A stretch of DNA of 64,000 nt from assembly GCF_053078305.1 (NCBI RefSeq), contig NZ_CP166879.1. One strand, written 5' to 3'. The notes under the pieces are model-generated. The model saw only the letters and a program-made list of their open reading frames with translations. It was not told the DNA's origin and ran no database searches. Of this stretch, positions 4,734-15,208 are shown piece after piece. A program made the translations under genes and the position numbers. Every line of letters begins with the position of its first letter. Within the stretch, counting starts at the first letter, position 1.

Positions 4734-5225
4734 TTAAAGCAGACCATGTTCGGCAAAGGAGAAAACCTGGCTGCCACCGACTATCAGATGGTCCGGCACC
4801 CGGATATCCACCAGGCCCAGTGCCTGTACCAGACGTTCGGTGATAAGGCGGTCTGCCTTACTGGGGGTGACTTCACCGGACGGGTGATTGTGCGCCAGCA
4901 CCACGGCAGCGGCATTGTGGTACAGGGCGCGTTTAATCACCTCCCGGGGATGGACTTCTGTGCGGTTGATGGTGCCTGTGAAGAGGGTTTCACCGGCAAT
5001 CAACTGATTCTGGTTGTTCAGATACAGCACCCGGAATTCTTCACGCTCCAGTCCAGCCATGTTCAGAATCAGCCATTCCCGTGCCGCTCGGGTGGAGGTG
5101 AAGGCCACGCCGGGTTCATGAAGATGGCGGTCCAGGGTTTTCAGGGCCCGCAGAATGAGACTGCGCTCGCCGGGCGTCATCTCTCCGGGCAGAAAGGAAA
5201 GCTGCTGCATTGTCCCTGCCTCCAT
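4734..5225 (-). CDS. yeeS: RadC-like JAB-domain protein (YeeS/YkfG/YfjY-like)
   Basis: JAMM/JAB motif region (…AAVVLAHNHPSGEVTPSKADRLITERL…); start may be the second Met at 5210. Confidence 0.8.
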   Translation of the reverse strand: MEAGTMQQLSFLPGEMTPGERSLILRALKTLDRHLHEPGVAFTSTRAAREWLILNMAGLEREEFRVLYLNNQNQLIAGETLFTGTINRTEVHPREVIKRALYHNAAAVVLAHNHPSGEVTPSKADRLITERLVQALGLVDIRVPDHLIVGGSQVFSFAEHGLL

Positions 5226-5699
5226 TCAGTCAATGATGCGCATAATGGCGCTGCATTCCGGATGCTGCAGGGCGTAATCCCGCAGCCGGTAATAATGGAC
5301 CGTCATGGCATAACACTCTGTACGACAGGCATGATGACTGTACGTCATCAGACAGGCAGCAATGCCGGCAGCTTCCGGACTCATTTCAGCGCGGTTACCG
5401 TTCATGGCATTGAACAGTACCCATGTTTCGTCATCATCGTCATCCGGTTCAGGGGCCATAAATGCCCCGCCGTTGTTCAGGGTGTACAGATTCCAGATGC
5501 CCCCGCAGTAGTCTTCGCACAAACGGTCCATCCAGCCGAAGACACGGGGCTCCAGGGTCACCCACTGTGGAATGAGGCTAAAATGCTGCGGCCAGAAGCT
5601 GATGCGCTGTTCATCAGGGACTATGGTGGCAACCAGTTGTTGCAGGCCAGTCTCCGGTGCACAGGCTGAAGAGGTGGTGTTCTGAGACAATGTTTTCAT
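5226..5699 (-). CDS. Antirestriction protein, ArdB/KlcA family (YfjX/YafX-like)
   Basis: ~157-aa product from internal Met (MKTLSQN…); acidic stretch PEPDDDDDETW; stop abuts radC-like start; conserved position in CP4-type modules. Confidence 0.75.
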   Translation of the reverse strand: MKTLSQNTTSSACAPETGLQQLVATIVPDEQRISFWPQHFSLIPQWVTLEPRVFGWMDRLCEDYCGGIWNLYTLNNGGAFMAPEPDDDDDETWVLFNAMNGNRAEMSPEAAGIAACLMTYSHHACRTECYAMTVHYYRLRDYALQHPECSAIMRIID

Positions 5700-5792
5700 G
5701 TGTGAAATCCTTGTAATGTGAATAAATGAGAGGAAATAAAGGCCGGGGGCTGACAACATCACGTTCATCACTGACCGTGAGACCCGGCAATA

Positions 5793-6038
5793 TCAGGGAT
5801 GAATGATATTCGGCTGAAATTCCGGACAGCCGTACGCGTAACCGTTCCGGTCACAGACGGATGGCCAGATGCCATTGCCTGTACTCAGTCTGCACAGACT
5901 GAGTTCTCCGGGACGGTAAAGCAGACGGGTACACCAGGCGCACAGGTCATCATCAGAAATGGAACGACATCCCGGCAGCGCCTCCGGGGCGTCGGGTGAT
6001 ACGGGTGCCTGAATCACGCCTTCAGGGATATGTTTCAT
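5793..6038 (-). CDS. Small DUF905-type protein (YkfF-like)
   Basis: 81-aa product from Met at 6038; its ATG overlaps the upstream stop as TGATG (6036-6040); position between DUF932 and antirestriction genes as in CP4-6/CP4-57. Confidence 0.6.
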   Translation of the reverse strand: MKHIPEGVIQAPVSPDAPEALPGCRSISDDDLCAWCTRLLYRPGELSLCRLSTGNGIWPSVCDRNGYAYGCPEFQPNIIHP

Positions 6039-6859
6039 CAGCGCATGCTCTCCAGCAGCGTTTCTGCCATCACCCACAATGCGCGGTTGAGCTTAATATC
6101 GGTGTCGATGCTGTGAATGGCACGGGTGTGGATACGTTTTCCTTTTGCACTGCGACCGGAAATCCCGCCTTTCAGCATATTCTCCTGGATGGTCTGATAA
6201 GCACTCCACAGGTCCTTACCGTAATCCTCCCGGCGTCGCGGTGTCAGAATGTCGGCGGTAGTGATGGGCTGATGTTCGTCACCATAACGGTAAGTCAGTG
6301 CCGCCTGTGCCAGCGCCTGGCGTGCCGGTGGCGGCAGGACCAGCGACTGCATGGCATCACGCTTCTCCTCTATCCGGTCAAACACGCCCACCACCTCGTA
6401 AGCCCCTTCAATGACTCTGTCCACCACATTTCCCCGGTGCGGAACACGCACTTCCCCCAGAGACTGACCACAGACGCATCCGTTCTGGCAGACGAACCTG
6501 AAGTAACCCGGCAGCATCTGGTAGCTGGAGGTACCGTCATGGGAGTTGAGCAGAATAATTTCAGGGACATGTTCTCCGTTTATCTCTCCGGCCCGCCGCA
6601 GACGCAGCATGTGTTTTGTGTATCCCCGGCGGCCCGGGTCGCGCACACGGGTCTGGCAGGCGAAGAATGGCTGAAAGCCTTCCCGCTGCAGGCTTTCCAG
6701 CACAGTGATGGTGGGGATGTACGTATAGTTCTGGCTTCGGGACGTGTGTTTCTCTTCCCCGAAAATCCCCGGCACATGGTGCATCAGCTCTTCATATGTC
6801 AGCGGACGGTCACGGCGTATCTGGTTTGCAGCATAACCAAAACGACTTGCTAATCGCAT
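6038..6859 (-). CDS. DUF932 protein (YafZ/YfjQ-like)
   Basis: 273-aa ORF, the size characteristic of YafZ/YfjQ; uninterrupted; strong coding appearance. Confidence 0.75.
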   Translation of the reverse strand: MRLASRFGYAANQIRRDRPLTYEELMHHVPGIFGEEKHTSRSQNYTYIPTITVLESLQREGFQPFFACQTRVRDPGRRGYTKHMLRLRRAGEINGEHVPEIILLNSHDGTSSYQMLPGYFRFVCQNGCVCGQSLGEVRVPHRGNVVDRVIEGAYEVVGVFDRIEEKRDAMQSLVLPPPARQALAQAALTYRYGDEHQPITTADILTPRRREDYGKDLWSAYQTIQENMLKGGISGRSAKGKRIHTRAIHSIDTDIKLNRALWVMAETLLESMR

Positions 6860-6904
6860 AATTTGCTCCTTATCGGTGGTTAAGATTTACTGGTGTAATA
6901 AATG

Positions 6905-6936
6905 AAAAAAGCCGCGTCTCCCGGAGAAGACGCGGC
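6905..6936 (-). terminator. Rho-independent terminator
   Basis: Stem gccgcgtct/agacgcggc with 8-nt loop; on the minus strand followed by UUUUUU (plus-strand aaaaaa at 6905-6910). Confidence 0.5.
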
Positions 6937-7269
6937 CTGATGGACGAAATTAATGAGGTTTATTGTCTGAGAAGCCCTCCACTGGCGAGCCACGCATTAA
7001 GCTGTTTTCCGGCATCAGCTTCAGAGTTCCGGCAGCGTCAGCGTCGCTGACCTTCCGCGTTGCGGATAACCCGACGGAAATGCATTCCCGGGTCATCCTG
7101 GATAAACACATTGCGGTAAGCGGTTATGACAGCAACCGCCTGCCCGTATGAGAAAGATCCTTCAGCCAGGACATACTCTGTGTGTAACCCGGCATATCTG
7201 GTTTCTCCTGATAAATAGCCTCTGCCATACGTTGTGGCAGAGGCTGAAGCATGAAACTGACTTCAGGGA

Positions 7270-7725
7270 TCAGTTAACATTTTTTCCGGAAACGGTAATC
7301 AGCAGTGGATGGTAGTCCTGGGGATTGAAAACCGATAACGGCAGACTGACACGATGGCCGTTACTTTCTTCAGTTGCTTTAATGATTTCGGTTGTGGCGA
7401 CATTTTCCACGCACTCCGTTTCCAGAAATGCGTCTGTGGTTCGCGTGGCATTACTGTCACCAAAAGCTTCCGTTTCCATTTTTCTGGTCACCAGCGTCTG
7501 ACCATATTTGTCTTTGAGTTGCAGAGTGATGGTGAGGGGGCCAAATCCTTCATCGTTTCCGCCATTATCCAGCCGGAACTGGTAAGCACAAATATTTCCC
7601 GGGAGCCATATTGTATCTGTATTGCGTATACTGATGTAACGTTGATCCTGTGCCCGGAGTGGGGCAGACCACGTTAACCCCAGAATGAAGGCGGTAATCA
7701 TGCAGGTTTTGAACAGGTGAATCAT
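7270..7725 (-). CDS. Secreted/periplasmic protein of unknown function
   Basis: 151-aa ORF with N-terminal signal peptide (MITAFILGLTWSAPLRAQ); no recognisable catalytic motif. Confidence 0.55.
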   Translation of the reverse strand: MIHLFKTCMITAFILGLTWSAPLRAQDQRYISIRNTDTIWLPGNICAYQFRLDNGGNDEGFGPLTITLQLKDKYGQTLVTRKMETEAFGDSNATRTTDAFLETECVENVATTEIIKATEESNGHRVSLPLSVFNPQDYHPLLITVSGKNVN

Positions 7726-7800
7726 GGTATTTACCTCTCTGAGTCATGACGATGACACTGACAAATCAGGTGATAAAGCGTAAAAGGCGCAGAATAGCCG

Positions 7801-10323
7801 TTATGCCGGTAACTCCGGGGGTAATGCTTCTTCCAGTCGGTTAACCATATTGCCGAGATGGGATGCATCATATTCCATGACGGGGCGTTGCCTGATGATA
7901 CTGACCACCAGTGGTTTGATTAACATATTGGTCGCGGCCCGTTGTTGTATACCGGCGGCGAAAATGATCTCCAGAGCATTCTGATCGATAACACGGGCCA
8001 GATTCGCGTTCAGATTTTCAATCTCATGTCCGGTCAGCAGGAAACTGCCGGCAAGCCATGTCACCTGCTCCTGAATCATTGCCAGAATTTTGACGCGATC
8101 TTCTTCAACCAGCGCTCCGGCAATTTTTCCTGATACAGCGGAGGCAATCATTCCCCCCAGAACACCGCCAACCACACGCCCTGTCAGTGCACCAAATGGT
8201 CCCAGTGGACTGAACAATATCCCGCCCGCCACTGACCCGACAGCACCACCTGCCACACCGGAAGATGCCACGGCAAGATTCCTGATGAACTGCGCACCGG
8301 AGATCCGTCCCCGCAACATTTTGATCATGTCAGGGCCGGTTGTGACAGCTACCAGTGCCAGAGATGTCACCAGCGTACCCTTCATCACTTTGTTCAGGGC
8401 ACTGATATTTCCTGCACCGGTCCCCTTCTGAAGAGCCAGTCGGACAGTCGGGCTGGCAGTCGAAAAATCAATGTGCTTCAGCATACCCTGAACAACAGTG
8501 AGCCGGTGAAGTTGCTGGGTTGTGACGTAGACAGCCAGTGTGCGGGTGAAGGTTTTTCCTGCCTGGACAGCAGCTGTCTGCAGGGCAGCATCGCGATCGC
8601 CGGTGCTGAGCCAGAAGATCGATGCCGTCAGGGCAAAACTGATCCCTCCGGCCGCCAGACTGACAACCGACCCCTCGGCAATATCATAAGTGACCGATTC
8701 GATGGTCCCGAACCGGGTGATATTACGGGCCTGAGTATAAGTCAGATGTCCCCGACGAATCAGCCGGGACGCTTCTGCGGGATCGGTTACACCGGGTACT
8801 TTACCTTCGCGGATCTTATTCCTCATGGTTTCAACAGCGCCGGCATACTGATCACGGGGGACTTCCAGTTGCATGGGGCCATTATTTCCCATGTAACGAT
8901 ACTGTCCGTTTTGTCCGTCGAATGCCGCACCGACGCTACGGGCTGCAGTTGAACAATATTTCGTCTGGATTTCTGTTCCGCTGACCAGTCTGTCTGCTCC
9001 ATTTCTGGCATTATTATCACCGAGGATCCGTGCGTTTTTCAGACGGACTCTGTCGACAATATGGTTTCCCCGTTCAGCGGCAAACCCATGTCCCTGCCCT
9101 CCGGAAGCAAACATTTTCTCATTTGTACTCCAGGTTTCCGGCAGTTTCATGAGAATCAGACCATTCGCCGTTGCATCGGAAATAAAGCTGTTGTAAGGGC
9201 GTTCATAAATTTCCTGACACAGTGTTTCTGTTTCGCGACAAAGAGAGGAGCAGTACCATTCCGGATCCGGCTTATGATTTTCCGGGGCATGATGTACTTC
9301 TGTCAGCCCGCAGGAGGCACAGATACGAAGCTCATCCACGTGATGGAATGATACAAAACGGCGACCTTCTGAAAAGGGATACCAGTCACCGCCGTCCAGG
9401 CAACGATCGAGAAAATCGTCATTCGCTTCCGGTGATAAATTCAGGCGGTTCCGGAAGAGCGTTTTCAGTTCATCAGGTGTGAATGACAGGTTCTCTTTCA
9501 ACTGTTCGTTAAACCCTGCCATGTTTCTTTCATACCAGGCATTGTTCAGTAACCAGTTTCCGTCTGCCAGTTCAAATTCCCTCAGCTCTCCCCGGGAAAT
9601 CCGTTGAGAAATGAGCGTCAGCCAGATGCGCTCCGTCAGTGAGTCAGGAAGGCTGTAATCGTTTTGCAAACTGGTCAGCCACGATTTACTGTTGAGCACC
9701 GGTTGTTCTTCCAGTGTCTGGCTGATGGCACAGGTCAGTTTTTTCAGCGCCTGGATCTGGCTGGCCGCCCATAGCAGCGTCACTAATGCAGCCAGCCAGT
9801 ACAACAACCCGCCCCACCACATCAGTGACGGTGAAATATCGTACTGTAACGCGATCAATGGTGCGCATGCAGAACACGCCATAAGGAAAAAGGCAGTATA
9901 AAAACAGCAGTAATACCCGTTAATTTCCTTGCTGATATCTTCTGGTGTGATCCCGTTCTGCTGAATGTTTTTGATCTGCAGGGGAACAGCCAGCAGACCA
10001 CCGGCGAGAGCAGTGGTCAGAATAAATTTCACAGAGTCAAAGGTGTGAGCCTCCAGCGCGATATGTTTACCATCAAGTCCCCACATGAAGCTGATGATCA
10101 TTCCGGCAATCGTCAGAAATACGCCTGCCAGCCAGCGAATATGGAACAACCGGGTTATGCGTTCGGTGATATAGCCAGCCAGTAAGGCCGGGCCGAACAG
10201 ACACAGCAATATGAGCCCTGCCAGCGCAGAAGCCGTGCTGATTAATGCTCTGAACAAAAGGCGAAGAATGGCAAATCCTGCGATCAGCAGGATCAGCGCG
10301 CCGACTATCTGTAACATAGTCAC
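7801..10323 (-). CDS. Large inner-membrane protein, YeeR-like
   Basis: 840-aa ORF immediately downstream of flu (position of yeeR in CP4-44); multiple N-terminal TM helices, Cys/His cluster (CASCGLTEVHH…CSSLC), Gly-rich hydrophobic C-terminal segment. Confidence 0.65.
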   Translation of the reverse strand: MTMLQIVGALILLIAGFAILRLLFRALISTASALAGLILLCLFGPALLAGYITERITRLFHIRWLAGVFLTIAGMIISFMWGLDGKHIALEAHTFDSVKFILTTALAGGLLAVPLQIKNIQQNGITPEDISKEINGYYCCFYTAFFLMACSACAPLIALQYDISPSLMWWGGLLYWLAALVTLLWAASQIQALKKLTCAISQTLEEQPVLNSKSWLTSLQNDYSLPDSLTERIWLTLISQRISRGELREFELADGNWLLNNAWYERNMAGFNEQLKENLSFTPDELKTLFRNRLNLSPEANDDFLDRCLDGGDWYPFSEGRRFVSFHHVDELRICASCGLTEVHHAPENHKPDPEWYCSSLCRETETLCQEIYERPYNSFISDATANGLILMKLPETWSTNEKMFASGGQGHGFAAERGNHIVDRVRLKNARILGDNNARNGADRLVSGTEIQTKYCSTAARSVGAAFDGQNGQYRYMGNNGPMQLEVPRDQYAGAVETMRNKIREGKVPGVTDPAEASRLIRRGHLTYTQARNITRFGTIESVTYDIAEGSVVSLAAGGISFALTASIFWLSTGDRDAALQTAAVQAGKTFTRTLAVYVTTQQLHRLTVVQGMLKHIDFSTASPTVRLALQKGTGAGNISALNKVMKGTLVTSLALVAVTTGPDMIKMLRGRISGAQFIRNLAVASSGVAGGAVGSVAGGILFSPLGPFGALTGRVVGGVLGGMIASAVSGKIAGALVEEDRVKILAMIQEQVTWLAGSFLLTGHEIENLNANLARVIDQNALEIIFAAGIQQRAATNMLIKPLVVSIIRQRPVMEYDASHLGNMVNRLEEALPPELPA

Positions 10324-10393
10324 TCCGTGATGAATATCATGTTATTGTTAATGCCAGCGAATGTGGCGTTGAATATCCGTTGCGCCGGTCCGG

Positions 10394-10418
10394 GTCCCGG
10401 TCATGATGACCGGGACCA
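10394..10418. repeat. Near-perfect 25-bp palindrome between flu and the YeeR-like gene
   Basis: ggtcccggtcatgatgaccgggacc reads the same on both strands except the central base. Confidence 0.8.
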
Positions 10419-10437: not shown

Positions 10438-13400
10438 TCAGAAGGTCACATTCAGCGTGGCCTGACCGTTATAGCCTTCAGCGCTGCTGCCGCTGACGCT
10501 GTGGACATAACCTGCCTGAACGCCCAGGGTGATGTTTTCCCGGACACGGGCTTCCAGTCCGGCCTGCAGGTCCAGTGACGTACCATTCTGTGACGGTGAG
10601 AACGTCATGTTACTGCCGGCTGCGGCTGTACCCATGCTCATGTCCCCCCGGGAGCTGAAGGTGCGGATAACAGAAGGCTGTACCCACCAGTTCACCGGCA
10701 GTTCACGCACACTGTGTTTGGCACTGCCGCGCAGGGTGTCACGGGATGAGGTGCCTTTACCAAAGTTCATATCGTTGTGGCTGCCCAGACGGAAGCCGGC
10801 ACGCACATGTTGTGCACTGCCATGCCCGAACTTCACATAACCGGCGTTGTCCTGACCGTCATCCAGGGAGAGTCCCTGCCAGGTGTACTGCAGTTGCGGC
10901 TCCAGCATCAGATTGTCAGTGATACTGAAGGGCAGACCGGTTTCCAGTGAACCCAGCCAGCCCCGGCCCCGGACGCGGAAGTCGTTATTGTCCGATGAGG
11001 CTTTCATGCTGTGGCGGGTTCCCTGGGCCACAATGTCAGCCCACAGGCCGGAGGCGTTGTGTATCAGATTCAGGTATCCGCCCAGGCTGCCGGCATCATC
11101 CCGGACCGTGCCGGCACGGGAGCCGTCATCATCCTTAACATCAACGGAAGAATGGCCTGCAGCACCATACACCCCTGTCGTCAGAGACATACCGGCAACC
11201 TCTGTTCTCATCAGGTCACCCTCCAGACGGACGAAGCCATAGCTGCCGCTGCTTTCCGGCGTGGCCCCACGGACAATACCGCCGTTGTTATCGTGACCGA
11301 GATGGCCGCCCTGAATGCTGAGACGGACGCTGTTATTTTCACCGTTTACACCGGTCTGATGGCTGCGGGAGCCTGCCAGAATCCGGTCATAGTCCATTGC
11401 CTGTGTCAGCATGGAGGCATACAGGGGGACTTCTGCACGATAAGCATTTTCACTGCGCAGATACCAGCTCTCATCACTGTCCCGGTTGAGGGAGTAGTTA
11501 AAGGCCCCGGCCTGCAGCCTGTTCCCCTGGACAAAGGCCCCTTCCTCCGTGGTGGCACCGTTAATGGCTTCCACCACCTGAATACCCTTACCGCTGGTCG
11601 CCAGCCCCGACGCACTGTTGCCGGCGTTCACCATGTTCAGGATGGTTTTTCCGGTTGCCCTGCCGCCGTCAATGACCAGTCTGTCAGCATTGTTCTGTGC
11701 CATATCCGGGCGTACACGCAGGCTGATGGTGCCATTCTGCCCGTTCAGGTTTTTCACTTTCAGGGTTGCCGGTACGAACTTCCCTGTGCGGGTGGAGGTG
11801 AAATGAATCTGTCCGGCATGGCTGAGGTCATCCACCACCGACTGCACCGTGGCGTTATCAGGGATATTCCAGGTGGCACCGGAGGCGAGAGTGACATTCG
11901 TGGGGTCAATGGCACCGTTCAGCACAGTGCTGCCGGTCAGCTTCAGGGCTGTACCGCGCTGAGCAATGACATCCGTGGTGACGGTACTGTCGTTCAGCGT
12001 CAGCGTGCCTTCATTCAGGTTGACGGCTTTCTGGGTGAGTGTGGTGTTGCTGACAGTGAGTGTGCCACTTCCTGATTTTTCCACGCTGCCGTTACCGGTG
12101 AGAGAGCCTCCCTGCAGGAGTGCATCGCCTTCACGGATGGTCAGGGTATCGTTGTTCACCGTCTTCCCGGAAAGGGTAAGTATGGCGCCGTTATTCAGCG
12201 TGGTGGTGCCCGCCAGTGTGCCGCCCCTGGCGGTGAACAGTCCGCCATTTACCGTGGTATCCGTGGCCGTATCACCGGCGTTCAGCGTGAATGAACTGCC
12301 TTTTTCCAGCATCAGGGCATCCGCCTGACCGCCTCCGATACTGAATGCCTTTCCGTCGCTCCGTGTACCACTGACAGCGGCACCGGAATCGGCCAGCAGT
12401 ACACCGCCATTTCCCATGGATACGGTGGTGGCGGTACCACCGTTGCGGACATCCAGCGTTCCGCCATCATCCACACGGGTATTAGTGGCTGTGTGTCCGC
12501 TCAGCACATCCAGACGTCCGCCATTTTCCAGTACGACATTATCAGCTTTACCCTCCACAACAGAGAATGCTCCCAGGCGGTTTGTACCGGTAACGGTTGC
12601 AGCCGTACTGGTAACCAGTGCACCGCCCGTGTTCTGGGTGACATCAGACGCTTTACCGCCGGCATTCACCTGCAGCTTTCCTTTCTGGTTGATGGTGGTA
12701 TGCGCGGCAGTTCCTCCTTCCTTAATCACCTGCCAGCCATCACGGTTTATCAGCGTCTCTGTTGCCGTGCCACCGTTGTGTACATACTGGTTACCCCCCT
12801 CCAGCCGGGTGTTATGTGCCTCTCCGTGTACCGTCTGGTCACCACCGGCGTAAATGAGGGTGTCCCGTGCCATCCCCGAAGACCAGATAACCTGCCGGCC
12901 ATTTTTGTTGATGGTGGTGGATTCAGCCGTCCCTCCGACCATCTGACCGCTGGACACATTTTCAGACTCCGGACCACCTTCTGCACCGGTGTTGACGATG
13001 GTTCCGGTTGCCAGTCCGCCATGTTTTATGGTCTGGTAACCATCCAGGTTAATAATTGTACCGGCAGCTTTCCCTCCCCCGTGTACCCACTGCTCACCTC
13101 TGTTATCCAGCGTGGTGTTCACCGCCAGTCCGTTAAGGCTCTGCCCTCCGCCATCACGAATAACCGTATCACTGGCAGTTCCTCCTGCCTGCACAATCTG
13201 ACGACCATTTGCGGTGACAGTGGTGTTTCTGCCTGTGCCACCCGCGTTTATCCATTGCCCGCCGGTGTTTTCGTCACTGTCCGGCCCCAGCTCAAGCCCG
13301 GTACTGACAGTCACGCCATCAGCTGTTCCGGATACAAACTGGTTGTCATGGTTTACCAGTGTTCCGCCATTCACTGTTTCACCCGGGTGCACAACGATGT

Positions 13401-13566
13401 CAGCAGCCAGCACCGGGAGTGACGTGACCGCGGCAAGAGACAGTGCAACCGCCACACCGCCACGTTTACCCCGTGCGCGGGCCAGTTCGGAGGCAACCAC
13501 GAAAGCGCCCGTAATGTGATTCCATACCAGCCTGTAGCAGGTATTCAGATGTCGTTTCATCAGCAT
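10438..13566 (-). CDS. flu: Antigen 43 (Ag43) self-associating autotransporter adhesin
   Basis: 1042-aa product matching remembered Ag43 along its length: extended signal peptide MKRHLNTCYRLVWNH…, passenger repeats, C-terminal beta-barrel ending …GYNGQATLNVTF. True start probably Met at 13560. Confidence 0.95.
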   Translation of the reverse strand: MLMKRHLNTCYRLVWNHITGAFVVASELARARGKRGGVAVALSLAAVTSLPVLAADIVVHPGETVNGGTLVNHDNQFVSGTADGVTVSTGLELGPDSDENTGGQWINAGGTGRNTTVTANGRQIVQAGGTASDTVIRDGGGQSLNGLAVNTTLDNRGEQWVHGGGKAAGTIINLDGYQTIKHGGLATGTIVNTGAEGGPESENVSSGQMVGGTAESTTINKNGRQVIWSSGMARDTLIYAGGDQTVHGEAHNTRLEGGNQYVHNGGTATETLINRDGWQVIKEGGTAAHTTINQKGKLQVNAGGKASDVTQNTGGALVTSTAATVTGTNRLGAFSVVEGKADNVVLENGGRLDVLSGHTATNTRVDDGGTLDVRNGGTATTVSMGNGGVLLADSGAAVSGTRSDGKAFSIGGGQADALMLEKGSSFTLNAGDTATDTTVNGGLFTARGGTLAGTTTLNNGAILTLSGKTVNNDTLTIREGDALLQGGSLTGNGSVEKSGSGTLTVSNTTLTQKAVNLNEGTLTLNDSTVTTDVIAQRGTALKLTGSTVLNGAIDPTNVTLASGATWNIPDNATVQSVVDDLSHAGQIHFTSTRTGKFVPATLKVKNLNGQNGTISLRVRPDMAQNNADRLVIDGGRATGKTILNMVNAGNSASGLATSGKGIQVVEAINGATTEEGAFVQGNRLQAGAFNYSLNRDSDESWYLRSENAYRAEVPLYASMLTQAMDYDRILAGSRSHQTGVNGENNSVRLSIQGGHLGHDNNGGIVRGATPESSGSYGFVRLEGDLMRTEVAGMSLTTGVYGAAGHSSVDVKDDDGSRAGTVRDDAGSLGGYLNLIHNASGLWADIVAQGTRHSMKASSDNNDFRVRGRGWLGSLETGLPFSITDNLMLEPQLQYTWQGLSLDDGQDNAGYVKFGHGSAQHVRAGFRLGSHNDMNFGKGTSSRDTLRGSAKHSVRELPVNWWVQPSVIRTFSSRGDMSMGTAAAGSNMTFSPSQNGTSLDLQAGLEARVRENITLGVQAGYVHSVSGSSAEGYNGQATLNVTF

Positions 13567-13892: not shown

Positions 13893-14765
13893 TCAGAAGA
13901 AAATCCAGTTCCATACCGCACGGGCAACAGAGACCACCGTGTTACGAACAGCGCGCAGGGCCGTACGGACAACAGAGGCAACACAGACGCTCTCCGCTGT
14001 GTCAAATATCCGGTCCACCGCACCGGTAAACTGTTCACGGGCCTGAGACCGGACAGATTCCGTGCGCAGCTCGTCCTGCAGTCGGGTCATCAGGGGACTG
14101 GCGGCATGGTCGGGAAGCGCTGTCATGAGCGCACTGACCAGCGTATCCAGTTCCCAGCCGGTGCGGGCCGATACGGCCACAACCGGATGTACGGGCCGGA
14201 ACAGACGGAATACCGCCTCCGTTTTTTCGCGAATATTCTGTGCCTGTGCAGGAGAAGGCTGAATACCGGCCATATCCCATTCATGGCAGGGCTCCGTTTT
14301 GTCGGCCTGCGTCACCACAAACAGCACCTGCTGATGTCCCCGGTGCAGGATGTGTCGCCAGAAATACTCATCCACAGACAGGGCCCGGTCATCGGCTTTA
14401 ATCAGCCACAGCACCAGGTCAAGTTCAGGCAGAATGTCACGGTACAGGGCCTCATACTCTGCATCCCTGTCCCGGCTCTCGCCCACCCCGGGCAGGTCAG
14501 TGATAACCATGCTGTGACCGTGGCCACTCAGACGGAAGCGCCGTACTTCCCGGGTGCCGGCGTGAACATCACTGACCGGGGTGACCTCCCCCTGAAACAG
14601 TGCATTACAGAGTGAGGATTTACCGGCCCCGCTTTTACCCATAATGCCAATCACGGGTTCGTGACGGGTGAGTTTGCGCAGATGTTCCAGGATGTGACGG
14701 GAAAGTGAGTAAGGCAGGGAGGAGAGCGGTTTTTCAATTGCCTCAATGGCATCAGACGGATTCAT
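13893..14765 (-). CDS. yeeP: YeeP/YkfA/YfjP-family GTPase
   Basis: P-loop GIMGKSGAGKSSL plus G-motifs (DLPGVG, TQADK); ~290 aa from Met at 14765 (ORF extends to 14804); upstream of flu as in CP4-44. Confidence 0.8.
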   Translation of the reverse strand: MNPSDAIEAIEKPLSSLPYSLSRHILEHLRKLTRHEPVIGIMGKSGAGKSSLCNALFQGEVTPVSDVHAGTREVRRFRLSGHGHSMVITDLPGVGESRDRDAEYEALYRDILPELDLVLWLIKADDRALSVDEYFWRHILHRGHQQVLFVVTQADKTEPCHEWDMAGIQPSPAQAQNIREKTEAVFRLFRPVHPVVAVSARTGWELDTLVSALMTALPDHAASPLMTRLQDELRTESVRSQAREQFTGAVDRIFDTAESVCVASVVRTALRAVRNTVVSVARAVWNWIFF

Positions 14766-15208
14766 ACATGTATTCCCGGTGAAAAAAGACAAAACCCCGC
14801 GCACCGGAAAGGTGGCGGGGGATCCACGGAGATAATATCTGTCTGAAATTGTTTTGAATCGATGGGATTGTTGCGTATTAACATGAAGGAGATCAGGACT
14901 TATCCGTTACTGGGTGATCTCCTTCCATGAAAATACGCAGTTATTGTTAAACAGCAGGCTGATTTCTCCGTAAAGGGGAAAATATTTATCGGCTGCATGA
15001 TTATCAGGTGTGTCTGTGTTTACTGCTGTGAGTATTTTTCAGTGTATTGTGGGGGAGATGTCAGTGGGAGATATTAAATTTACGTTTATAATTATCTTAC
15101 TTCTTCTGTGTGTTTTTTATAAGAGTGCACACGTAATGATATCTGTTGATACCATGTGGTTAAGTGTTTCCCTTCCGGGTCATGCGTACTTGCAAAATGG
15201 CATCTGAA

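Follow-up and report, generated by a model that had tools for sequence, protein, structure and literature searches.

The stretch of DNA analysed here (the window) comprises 64,000 nucleotides (nt) of NCBI RefSeq assembly GCF_053078305.1, contig NZ_CP166879.1, and the gene under study is yeeR, which lies on the minus strand between flu (agn43), encoding the autotransporter Ag43, and irmA. The yeeR open reading frame (ORF) is intact and is a cargo gene of a CP4-44-type integrative island; the order flu-yeeR-irmA equals that of annotated genomes, and the position is that expected of such an island. The features at the locus, in transcriptional order, are as follows.

10438-13566, minus strand: flu/agn43 (Ag43 autotransporter), the 5′ gene of the published agn43-yeeR-irmA transcription unit
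10393-10417, in the flu-yeeR spacer: perfect 12+1+12 palindrome, with arms at 10393-10404 and 10406-10417 that are 100% complementary
10323-10326, minus strand: Shine-Dalgarno sequence GGAG, read in the sequence, 5 nt 5′ of the ATG at 10317
7801-10317, minus strand: full-length yeeR coding sequence, 838 amino acids (aa) from the ATG at 10317, stop codon at 7801-7803 (ORF list and RefSeq annotation)
7270-7725, minus strand: irmA (IrmA family protein), the gene downstream of yeeR
5187-8796: stretch missing in Escherichia coli K-12, 3,610 bp (BLASTN of a K-12-type locus, L001, against the window, and annotations)

Read from a GTG at 10323, the ORF (7801-10323, minus strand) gives a protein of 840 aa, the length adopted in an earlier note on this DNA. 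The start is probably the ATG at 10317 and not the GTG, because GGAG lies 5 nt upstream of this ATG and the homologous copies in RefSeq, named 'YeeR family protein' or 'hypothetical protein', are annotated at 838 aa. Residue numbers below follow the 840-aa protein; RefSeq numbering is lower by 2.

The earlier note had placed the gene in the yeeR position and suspected that its product was larger than K-12 YeeR. The gene is yeeR itself: K-12-type genomes match it only at nt 1-1527, with 99.9% identity, and annotate the matching part as 'yeeR: protein YeeR'. K-12 YeeR (b2001, CP4-44 prophage) has 510 aa against the 838/840 aa of the window protein, and the comparison identifies the K-12 gene as a truncated form, left by a deletion (8796 to 5187) that takes the last ~331 codons of yeeR, irmA, DUF905, DUF932, an antirestriction gene and the 5′ end of yeeS, and fuses yeeR onto yeeS. 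The K-12 protein is the product of the same gene in the same place, between agn43 and the yeeS-cbtA block, but it lacks residues 510-840, so that its core domain is cut short and the C-terminal membrane module described below is missing altogether, and K-12 phenotypes therefore say little about intact YeeR. The K-12 locus differs further in that it is also without irmA, DUF905, DUF932 and the antirestriction gene. In the window, the DUF905 gene 3′ of irmA (~6958-7195, minus strand) is a pseudogene: compared with the annotated 77-aa gene of strain 09A19CPO009 (L002), it has 2 bp inserted after codon 4 and TGG changed to TGA. The K-12 truncation has already been published (PMC6480617, PMC4807369). 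YeeR is termed 'uncharacterized' (PMC4807369), which agrees with the 'function unknown' of the earlier note, and the literature that we searched for connections to defence, nucleases and PDC-M09 assigns it no function.

By megablast, yeeR is matched in 2,582 of 5,426 complete E. coli genomes; 1,800 hold a copy covering at least 80% of its length, and the other 782 do not. Full-length E. coli copies are 97-99.7% identical to that of the window, and among these alleles dN/dS is ~0.22, both overall and per domain, showing that yeeR is under purifying selection. Compared with loci L017 and L018, the alleles diverge in a mosaic manner, with a synonymous divergence of ~0.14 across the 5′ half, which encodes the transmembrane (TM) and winged-helix/zinc regions, and of only 0.02-0.03 in the core and C-terminal regions, and recombination between allele lineages within yeeR is therefore suggested. 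Homologues of the same length, at 39-69% identity, occur in Serratia, Citrobacter-type Enterobacteriaceae, Methylomonas, Shewanella, Pseudomonas, Herbaspirillum, Cupriavidus and Deefgea, and the invariant motifs of YeeR are kept from Gamma- and Betaproteobacteria to Firmicutes.

Conservation was read from alignments of 26 and 92 homologues, and an AlphaFold2 (AF2) model was built on the 92-sequence alignment, with a mean pLDDT (predicted local distance difference test) of 77.6. From the N-terminus to the C-terminus, YeeR is divided as follows.

Residues 1-190 (9754-10317, minus strand): N-terminal membrane domain of 5-6 hydrophobic helices (protein and family-average hydropathy; AF2 helices with pLDDT 83-97)
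Residues ~205-331 (9331-9711, minus strand): predicted tandem winged-helix module
Residues 332-374 (9202-9330, minus strand): predicted Cys4 zinc ribbon, C335-x2-C338-x19-C358-x3-C362 plus C369
Residues 377-408 (9100-9195, minus strand): linker of low confidence (pLDDT <50)
Residues ~409-550 (8674-9099, minus strand): conserved core domain with a predicted restriction-endonuclease-like (PD-(D/E)xK) fold
Residues 551-840 (7804-8673, minus strand): C-terminal helical, membrane-associated module (conservation and family hydropathy)
Residues ~680-735 (8119-8286, minus strand), within that module: Gly-rich glycine-zipper hydrophobic hairpin (AF2 pLDDT <50)

Hydropathy places six hydrophobic segments in residues 1-191, where AF2 also predicts helices, and another at 551-573, bearing out the polytopic protein of the earlier note. 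Set beside the C-terminal tandem winged-helix domains of SelB, the predicted winged-helix module has a sequence identity of only 10-11%; the comparison does not imply that YeeR shares the function of SelB, a protein that binds SECIS RNA at the ribosome. The segment that follows holds the peptide CASCGLTEVHHAPENHKPDPEWYCSSLCRETETLCQEIYERPYNS (residues 335-379), which had been described as a Cys/His cluster. The cysteine part of this description holds, as C335, C338, C358, C362 and C369 are conserved and all long homologues keep the cysteines, the EW (EW357) before C358 and the TE (TE366) after C362; the histidine part does not, as H344, H345 and H350 vary among homologues. TRASH/FCS-type Cys4 sites are defined by the spacing C-x2-C-x19-22-C-x3-C, to which C335-x2-C338-x19-C358-x3-C362 conforms. 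No Pfam zinc-ribbon, TRASH or FCS model was matched, the scan returning scattered noise only at E 0.01-8 (zf-MYND, Zn_ribbon_IS1595 and Zn_Ribbon_1).

The core and the C-terminal module together constitute the Pfam family PF27347, YeeR_C, which is precomputed for a 99%-identical cluster (P0001) and for nearly all homologues. The C-terminal module holds a conserved RGRISGAQF-KN motif and the conserved polar residues Q604, S675, Q678, K681, N682, D742 (the invariant Asp of an EDD motif) and R813. Its family-averaged hydropathy peaks at 547-572, 642-670, 683-708 and 707-735, and the segment 574-650 is strongly positive (9.5 Lys/Arg against 3.1 Asp/Glu per sequence); a simple four-pass topology of the C-terminus therefore conflicts with the positive-inside rule, and a cytoplasmic helical domain with one glycine-zipper hairpin is equally possible. 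The Gly-rich hydrophobic tail with its zipper, noticed previously, is confirmed by a Gly content of 28% at residues 681-720 and by repeated small-xxx-small spacing. The zipper glycines G692, G693, G696, G700, G715, G719, G723 and G724 are conserved, and the zipper has a weak match to the glycine-zipper family C19orf12 of Pfam, which at E 0.0076 falls short of the Pfam cut-off. Conservation in YeeR is highest, however, between the Cys cluster and the Gly tail, in a domain (residues ~409-550) to which the earlier note had not drawn attention.

In this core domain the invariant positions are G411, H412, G413, F/A/A, E417, D424, G442, A443, D444, R445, Q453, K455 and Y456, followed by Y477, E487, V488, P489, D491 and D547. 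Four of them, E417, D444, Q453 and K455, are invariant in 92 and in 62 homologues, and also in the PDC-M09B family considered below. A separate AF2 model of residues 398-560 (predicted template modelling score 0.76) has its elements in the same order as the full model: helix 412-426, carrying E417; strand 431-433; strand 445-447, with D444 immediately before it; strand 450-454, carrying Q453, with K455 next; helix 460-465; strand 485-488, carrying E487; and helix 490-505. This predicted alpha-beta-beta-beta-alpha-beta topology is the core of the PD-(D/E)xK fold, and the models thus make it fairly probable that the YeeR core adopts a restriction-endonuclease-like fold. Judged from the element order of the predicted model, the positions of the catalytic motif would be taken by E417 on helix 1, D444 before strand 2 and K455 at the canonical place, with the invariant Gln Q453 at the (D/E) position. 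TnsA, an active nuclease, uses an E-D-QxK arrangement of this kind (E63, D114, Q130 and K132); the TnsA sequence used agreed with 1f1z. Like the PD-(D/E)xK nucleases Hjc, TnsA, NucS, MspJI, FokI and HamA, YeeR has the predicted core topology, with the helix-1 Glu, the pre-strand-2 Asp and the strand-3 x-K in place; unlike them, it has the additional invariants H412, R445, Y477, E487 and D491, which are without canonical counterpart, and its core sits between two membrane modules.

Direct searches weigh against this fold assignment. Pfam, NCBIfam and PHROGs returned nothing for the whole of YeeR, and Pfam at E <= 10 gave only noise for residues 195-560 of ten diverse members. Neither phmmer nor a profile search of PDB sequences found a match, hhalign gave the core profile a probability of 0.9% against Hjc (1gef) and TnsA (1f1z), and Foldseek with the full YeeR model found nothing in the PDB at E <= 0.001. 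A short resemblance to Hjc/TnsA, GHGFA / GQGHG, was also considered and ruled out, as the two motifs are not structurally equivalent.

An exhaustive HMMER search with the core profile collected 1,097 clusters (50% identity) at E <= 1e-3, 605 of them at E <= 1e-30. Their constant part is the core with the C-terminal helical/Gly module, and the N-termini differ: besides the YeeR-type arrangement of six TM helices, winged helices and zinc ribbon, there are proteins of 470-520 aa with no N-terminal addition, and others with a ~175-aa domain, Sel1/TPR, TM2, TerB or FGE-sulfatase. One member carries a microbial PARG and an ADP-ribosylglycohydrolase (ARH) domain in front of YeeR_C (P0222, 1,335 aa, metagenomic, L006 4620-8627, flanked by HD-domain and radical-SAM genes); it hints that some YeeR_C members are linked to ADP-ribose chemistry, and none of the explanations offered below accounts for it. 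Only 11 of 72,556 plasmid records, several of which are chromosome-sized (1-5 Mb), and 1 of 50,697 phage records contain a member, so that the family is rare on both. To combine one constant, effector-like module with exchangeable N-termini is typical of conflict systems, and Shedu SduA and NERD-domain proteins likewise join a constant PD-(D/E)xK core to variable sensor N-termini. With these the YeeR_C family would share a nuclease-fold core, swappable N-termini including TM helices, a single-gene format and a location on mobile elements; it differs in that the Pfam and PADLOC scans detected no homology to them and in that it adds the C-terminal helical/glycine-zipper module.

YeeR is linked to defence through PDC-M09 (PDC-M09A with PDC-M09B), a phage-defence candidate of PADLOC. 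The PDC systems are 145 candidates predicted by 'guilt by embedding' in BREX, DISARM and type I restriction-modification loci (Payne et al., bioRxiv 10.1101/2024.01.29.577857). The window YeeR matches the PDC-M09B model partially and weakly (E 1.3e-5, residues 412-554, where a true PDC-M09B scores 5e-214), and short YeeR_C proteins match nearly the entire model, again weakly (E down to 1.9e-8). Comparing profiles by hhalign, the YeeR core and the PDC-M09B family (31 members aligned) are related with 96.3% probability (E 1.7e-9, 50 columns), while pairwise BLASTP and a profile-versus-single-sequence comparison were not significant. The invariants of PDC-M09B mirror those of YeeR: KHGEIAE corresponds to GHGFAAE, P-x-DYLIDG-x2-VQSKF to GADRLVDG-x2-IQTKY, and HIPKD to EVPKD. 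These sequence comparisons support homology between the YeeR core and PDC-M09B, with YeeR as a relative and not as a PDC-M09B member. PDC-M09B (~480 aa) has the layout of the YeeR_C module, and the motifs HG-x2-AE, D, QxK[FY] and [IV]PKD are common to both, but YeeR has 400 extra N-terminal residues (TM bundle, winged helices and zinc ribbon) that are not derived from PDC-M09A. A fusion of PDC-M09A with PDC-M09B was ruled out as the origin of YeeR, as PDC-M09A is unlike residues 1-400 and only Gly-rich segments match, with 23% probability. No PDC-M09A partner was found beside yeeR in the window, where the neighbours are flu and irmA and where irmA, DUF932 and the GTPase upstream of flu gave no PDC-M09A match.

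In Citrobacter-type genomes (L020/L021, 5761-11523), a YeeR orthologue 68% identical to that of the window lies 36 bp downstream of a WYL-PDC-M09A-PDC-M09B cluster (PDC-M09A E 3e-120, PDC-M09B E 5e-214) and is followed by dndBCDE; these loci hold two paralogous YeeR_C-type proteins in tandem. YeeR and PDC-M09 are also alike as cargo of AlpA/YfjJ/DUF932-type islands (for PDC-M09 also at L022-L024, ~6075-8449): in such islands of Aeromonas, PDC-M09A and PDC-M09B take the cargo slot that flu-yeeR-irmA holds in E. coli. The other contexts of homologues were as follows.

Methylomonas: HicAB, a GYF_2 protein, DUF6399, a TIR effector (PADLOC 2.7e-30) and IS66 nearby
Herbaspirillum: complete Azaca ZacABC (4e-219, 1e-100, 3e-82), divergently adjacent, in an integrase-bounded element
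Deefgea: between HepT/MNT toxin-antitoxin pairs, with IS21 and an integrase fragment alongside
Firmicute metagenome contigs: between integrases, resolvase and relaxase fragments
Lactococcus conjugative plasmid: WYL regulator directly upstream, BnzA-like fragment downstream and an Abi gene nearby
Oscillospirales temperate phage: between endolysin and invertase
Serratia (L019 7608-11520): irmA-yeeR in a CP4-like island, with no Ag43 gene
Pseudomonas (L005): neither mobile nor defence genes
Metagenomic locus (L010): likewise without mobile or defence genes

In the Serratia locus irmA lies upstream of yeeR, not downstream, and a 148-aa ORF before irmA weakly matches PDC-M09A (2.4e-8) and is remnant-like. 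Across the ~13 contexts, which are anecdotal and come with no background rate, no partner gene is conserved, and outside Enterobacteria the homologues examined have no autotransporter or IrmA neighbour. The neighbourhoods fit a gene carried as cargo by mobile elements or defence islands, and the lack of autotransporter and IrmA neighbours argues against a dedicated Ag43 helper; a link to aggregation or biofilm formation, for which the earlier note had proposed a deletion phenotype, finds no support in this distribution.

Transcription ties yeeR to flu in E. coli. In uropathogenic E. coli (UPEC), agn43-yeeR-irmA are co-transcribed and repressed by OxyR, with read-through seen by RT-PCR, and IrmA is found in the supernatant even without Ag43 and YeeR (PMC4807369). 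In the enteroaggregative strain EAEC 042, irmA is driven by its own promoter (PMC9431211), and in a K-12-derived gcvB mutant flu rises 63.6-fold and yeeR just 4.6-fold (PMC8614746). The spacer between flu and yeeR contains the 25-bp palindrome of the earlier note, which had called it near-perfect; its arms are in fact perfectly complementary. The palindrome starts 20 nt past the flu stop codon, occurs once in the window (0 matches expected by chance) and recurs unchanged in K-12 and in two further E. coli copies; the 117-nt spacer RNA has a folding energy of -40.1 kcal/mol (z = -3.75 against shuffles). A canonical intrinsic terminator was ruled out by the missing T-run after the palindrome, by a terminator scan that made no call there and by the documented read-through (PMC4807369). 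The hairpin in the mRNA is probably a partial attenuator or a 3′-end stabiliser of the flu message, and the unequal rise of flu and yeeR fits, by our reading, such a partial barrier or stabiliser and not a full terminator.

Upstream of flu, a full-length Rfam match to IS102 RNA (RF00124; 13585-13789, minus strand; 252.9 bits, E 4.6e-48) lies directly before the flu start codon (13566), between flu and a GTPase gene; it is the sole Rfam match in the window, which contains no tRNA gene. The GTPase is of the YeeP type, intact, of 303 aa (13893-14804, minus strand), and its K-12-type counterpart is annotated as a partial pseudogene; in PADLOC it matches the GTPase parts of LeoBC (1.6e-8) and LeoA (8e-5) of the Eleos system. 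Further on, 14800-39700 is poorly matched among complete E. coli genomes, the best records covering 61% at 93.8% identity, which makes the left flank of the island (YfjI family, fucP, rbsK-like, YagM family and IS elements) uncommon or mosaic in its arrangement.

Drawing on prediction and genomic context, we propose, with a probability of roughly 45%, that YeeR is an inner-membrane-tethered, nucleic-acid-targeting conflict or defence effector. Its N-terminal bundle of 5-6 TM helices and its C-terminal glycine-zipper hairpin would hold three presumably cytoplasmic modules, the tandem winged helix, the Cys4 zinc ribbon and the restriction-endonuclease-like core, at the inner membrane. The winged-helix and zinc modules would bind DNA or RNA on the cytoplasmic side of the membrane, and the core, with its E417 / D444 / Q453-x-K455 constellation, would cut nucleic acid or at least bind it. 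The C-terminal helical/glycine-zipper module would anchor or oligomerise YeeR and may provide a second, membrane-damaging output. The biological role would be that of a single-polypeptide conflict, defence or exclusion effector on integrative islands, and in E. coli the gene is expressed from the phase-variable agn43 promoter, with transcripts that read through the conserved hairpin. So understood, yeeR is a testable defence-gene candidate and not an adhesin helper, and its product may represent a PD-(D/E)xK-fold conflict protein in a new membrane-tethered architecture.

Four other explanations were weighed. YeeR could act mainly on the membrane, its C-terminal module oligomerising to perturb or remodel the inner membrane, whether in the manner of a pore-forming or abortive-infection effector or of a dynamin-partner-like paddle, with the nuclease-like core as a non-catalytic sensor or scaffold. 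This would suit the C-terminal module, which is as conserved as the core, with invariant polar Q604, S675, Q678, N682, D742 and R813, and has the glycine zipper; the Gln at the (D/E) position could likewise signal lost catalysis. There is also a resemblance to Eleos (LeoA/LeoBC): the Gly-rich membrane region of short YeeR_C proteins matches the C-terminus of LeoB/LeoBC (E 4e-5 to 6e-7), PDC-M09A matches the same C-terminal membrane part (2.8e-5), and the YeeP-type GTPase with its LeoA/LeoBC similarity is encoded just upstream of flu. However, YeeR has no GTPase domain (no GTPase match) and itself misses the Leo models, LeoB included, and the LeoB similarity may reflect Gly/Ala-rich composition only. 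Moreover, E417, D444, Q453, K455, H412, R445, E487 and D491 are invariant in ~150 diverse sequences and in PDC-M09B, a pattern that looks like an active site and not like a scaffold. We consider a mainly membrane-acting YeeR rather unlikely.

Alternatively, YeeR may serve the island itself by processing or excluding DNA during the transfer or establishment of CP4-44-type elements, for instance in entry exclusion. In Enterobacteria yeeR always lies amid transfer- or establishment-type genes (DUF932, KlcA/ArdB-type antirestriction, RadC/JAB, AlpA and YfjJ), PDC-M09AB takes the equivalent cargo slot in the Aeromonas islands, and a membrane-tethered protein with DNA-binding-type modules, as predicted here, would suit such a task. 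Yet many relatives, among them those of Pseudomonas, Methylomonas and Deefgea and the short Firmicute forms, lie outside CP4-44-type islands, and K-12 and many other strains retain the island although their yeeR is truncated or disrupted by insertion sequences. An island-serving role thus appears quite unlikely.

An accessory function in the biogenesis, display or regulation of Ag43 or IrmA, with effects on aggregation or biofilm, is suggested by the co-transcription and OxyR repression in UPEC (PMC4807369), by the joint response of flu and yeeR in K-12 (PMC8614746) and by the adjacency of irmA and yeeR in Serratia as well. Against it, IrmA release is independent of Ag43 and YeeR (PMC4807369), irmA of EAEC 042 has a promoter of its own (PMC9431211), K-12 autoaggregates via Ag43 despite its truncated yeeR, the homologues examined outside Enterobacteria have neither neighbour, and a winged helix, a zinc ribbon and a nuclease-like fold are not suggestive of secretion; we regard this function as very improbable. 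Least credible is a decaying passenger gene with no current function in E. coli, an idea fed by the frequent truncation or insertion-sequence interruption of yeeR (K-12, CFT073 and the 782 of 2,582 matching genomes without an 80%-length copy) and by the neighbouring DUF905 pseudogene, but contradicted by the dN/dS of ~0.22 across all domains, by full-length copies of 97-99.7% identity in 1,800 genomes and by motifs that are invariant from Gamma- and Betaproteobacteria to Firmicutes.

Relative to the literature searched, the yeeR gene, its operon, the K-12 truncation, the Pfam entry for the family and the distant PADLOC relative were already known. What would be new, at the level of sequence and model, is the domain dissection, the predicted nuclease-like fold with named invariant residues and the predicted tandem winged helix, together with the PDC-M09B homology and the WYL-M09A-M09B-YeeR arrangement.

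Returning to YeeR as a nucleic-acid-targeting effector at the inner membrane, a bolder extension, on balance unlikely, is that YeeR_C and PDC-M09B form a widespread, unrecognised class of membrane-tethered immunity proteins of restriction-endonuclease fold, which would either attack the nucleic acid of invaders at the inner membrane or respond to it by setting off membrane damage, and that in E. coli the Dam/OxyR phase switch would turn this immunity ON and OFF along with Ag43. If so, the aggregated phase-ON cells would also be the protected ones. If the effector reading is true, the defence repertoire would be enlarged by a new family of membrane-tethered, nuclease-fold proteins, the PADLOC candidate PDC-M09 would gain a mechanistic handle, and it would become worthwhile to test whether aggregation and immunity are coupled by phase variation. 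K-12 holds only a stump of yeeR, and decades of K-12 work cannot have revealed the function of YeeR; roughly one in three complete E. coli genomes has an intact or near-full-length yeeR, which in uropathogenic strains is co-expressed with phase-variable Ag43. A structural hypothesis with named residues, while not a surprise of principle, makes this widespread E. coli y-gene directly testable.

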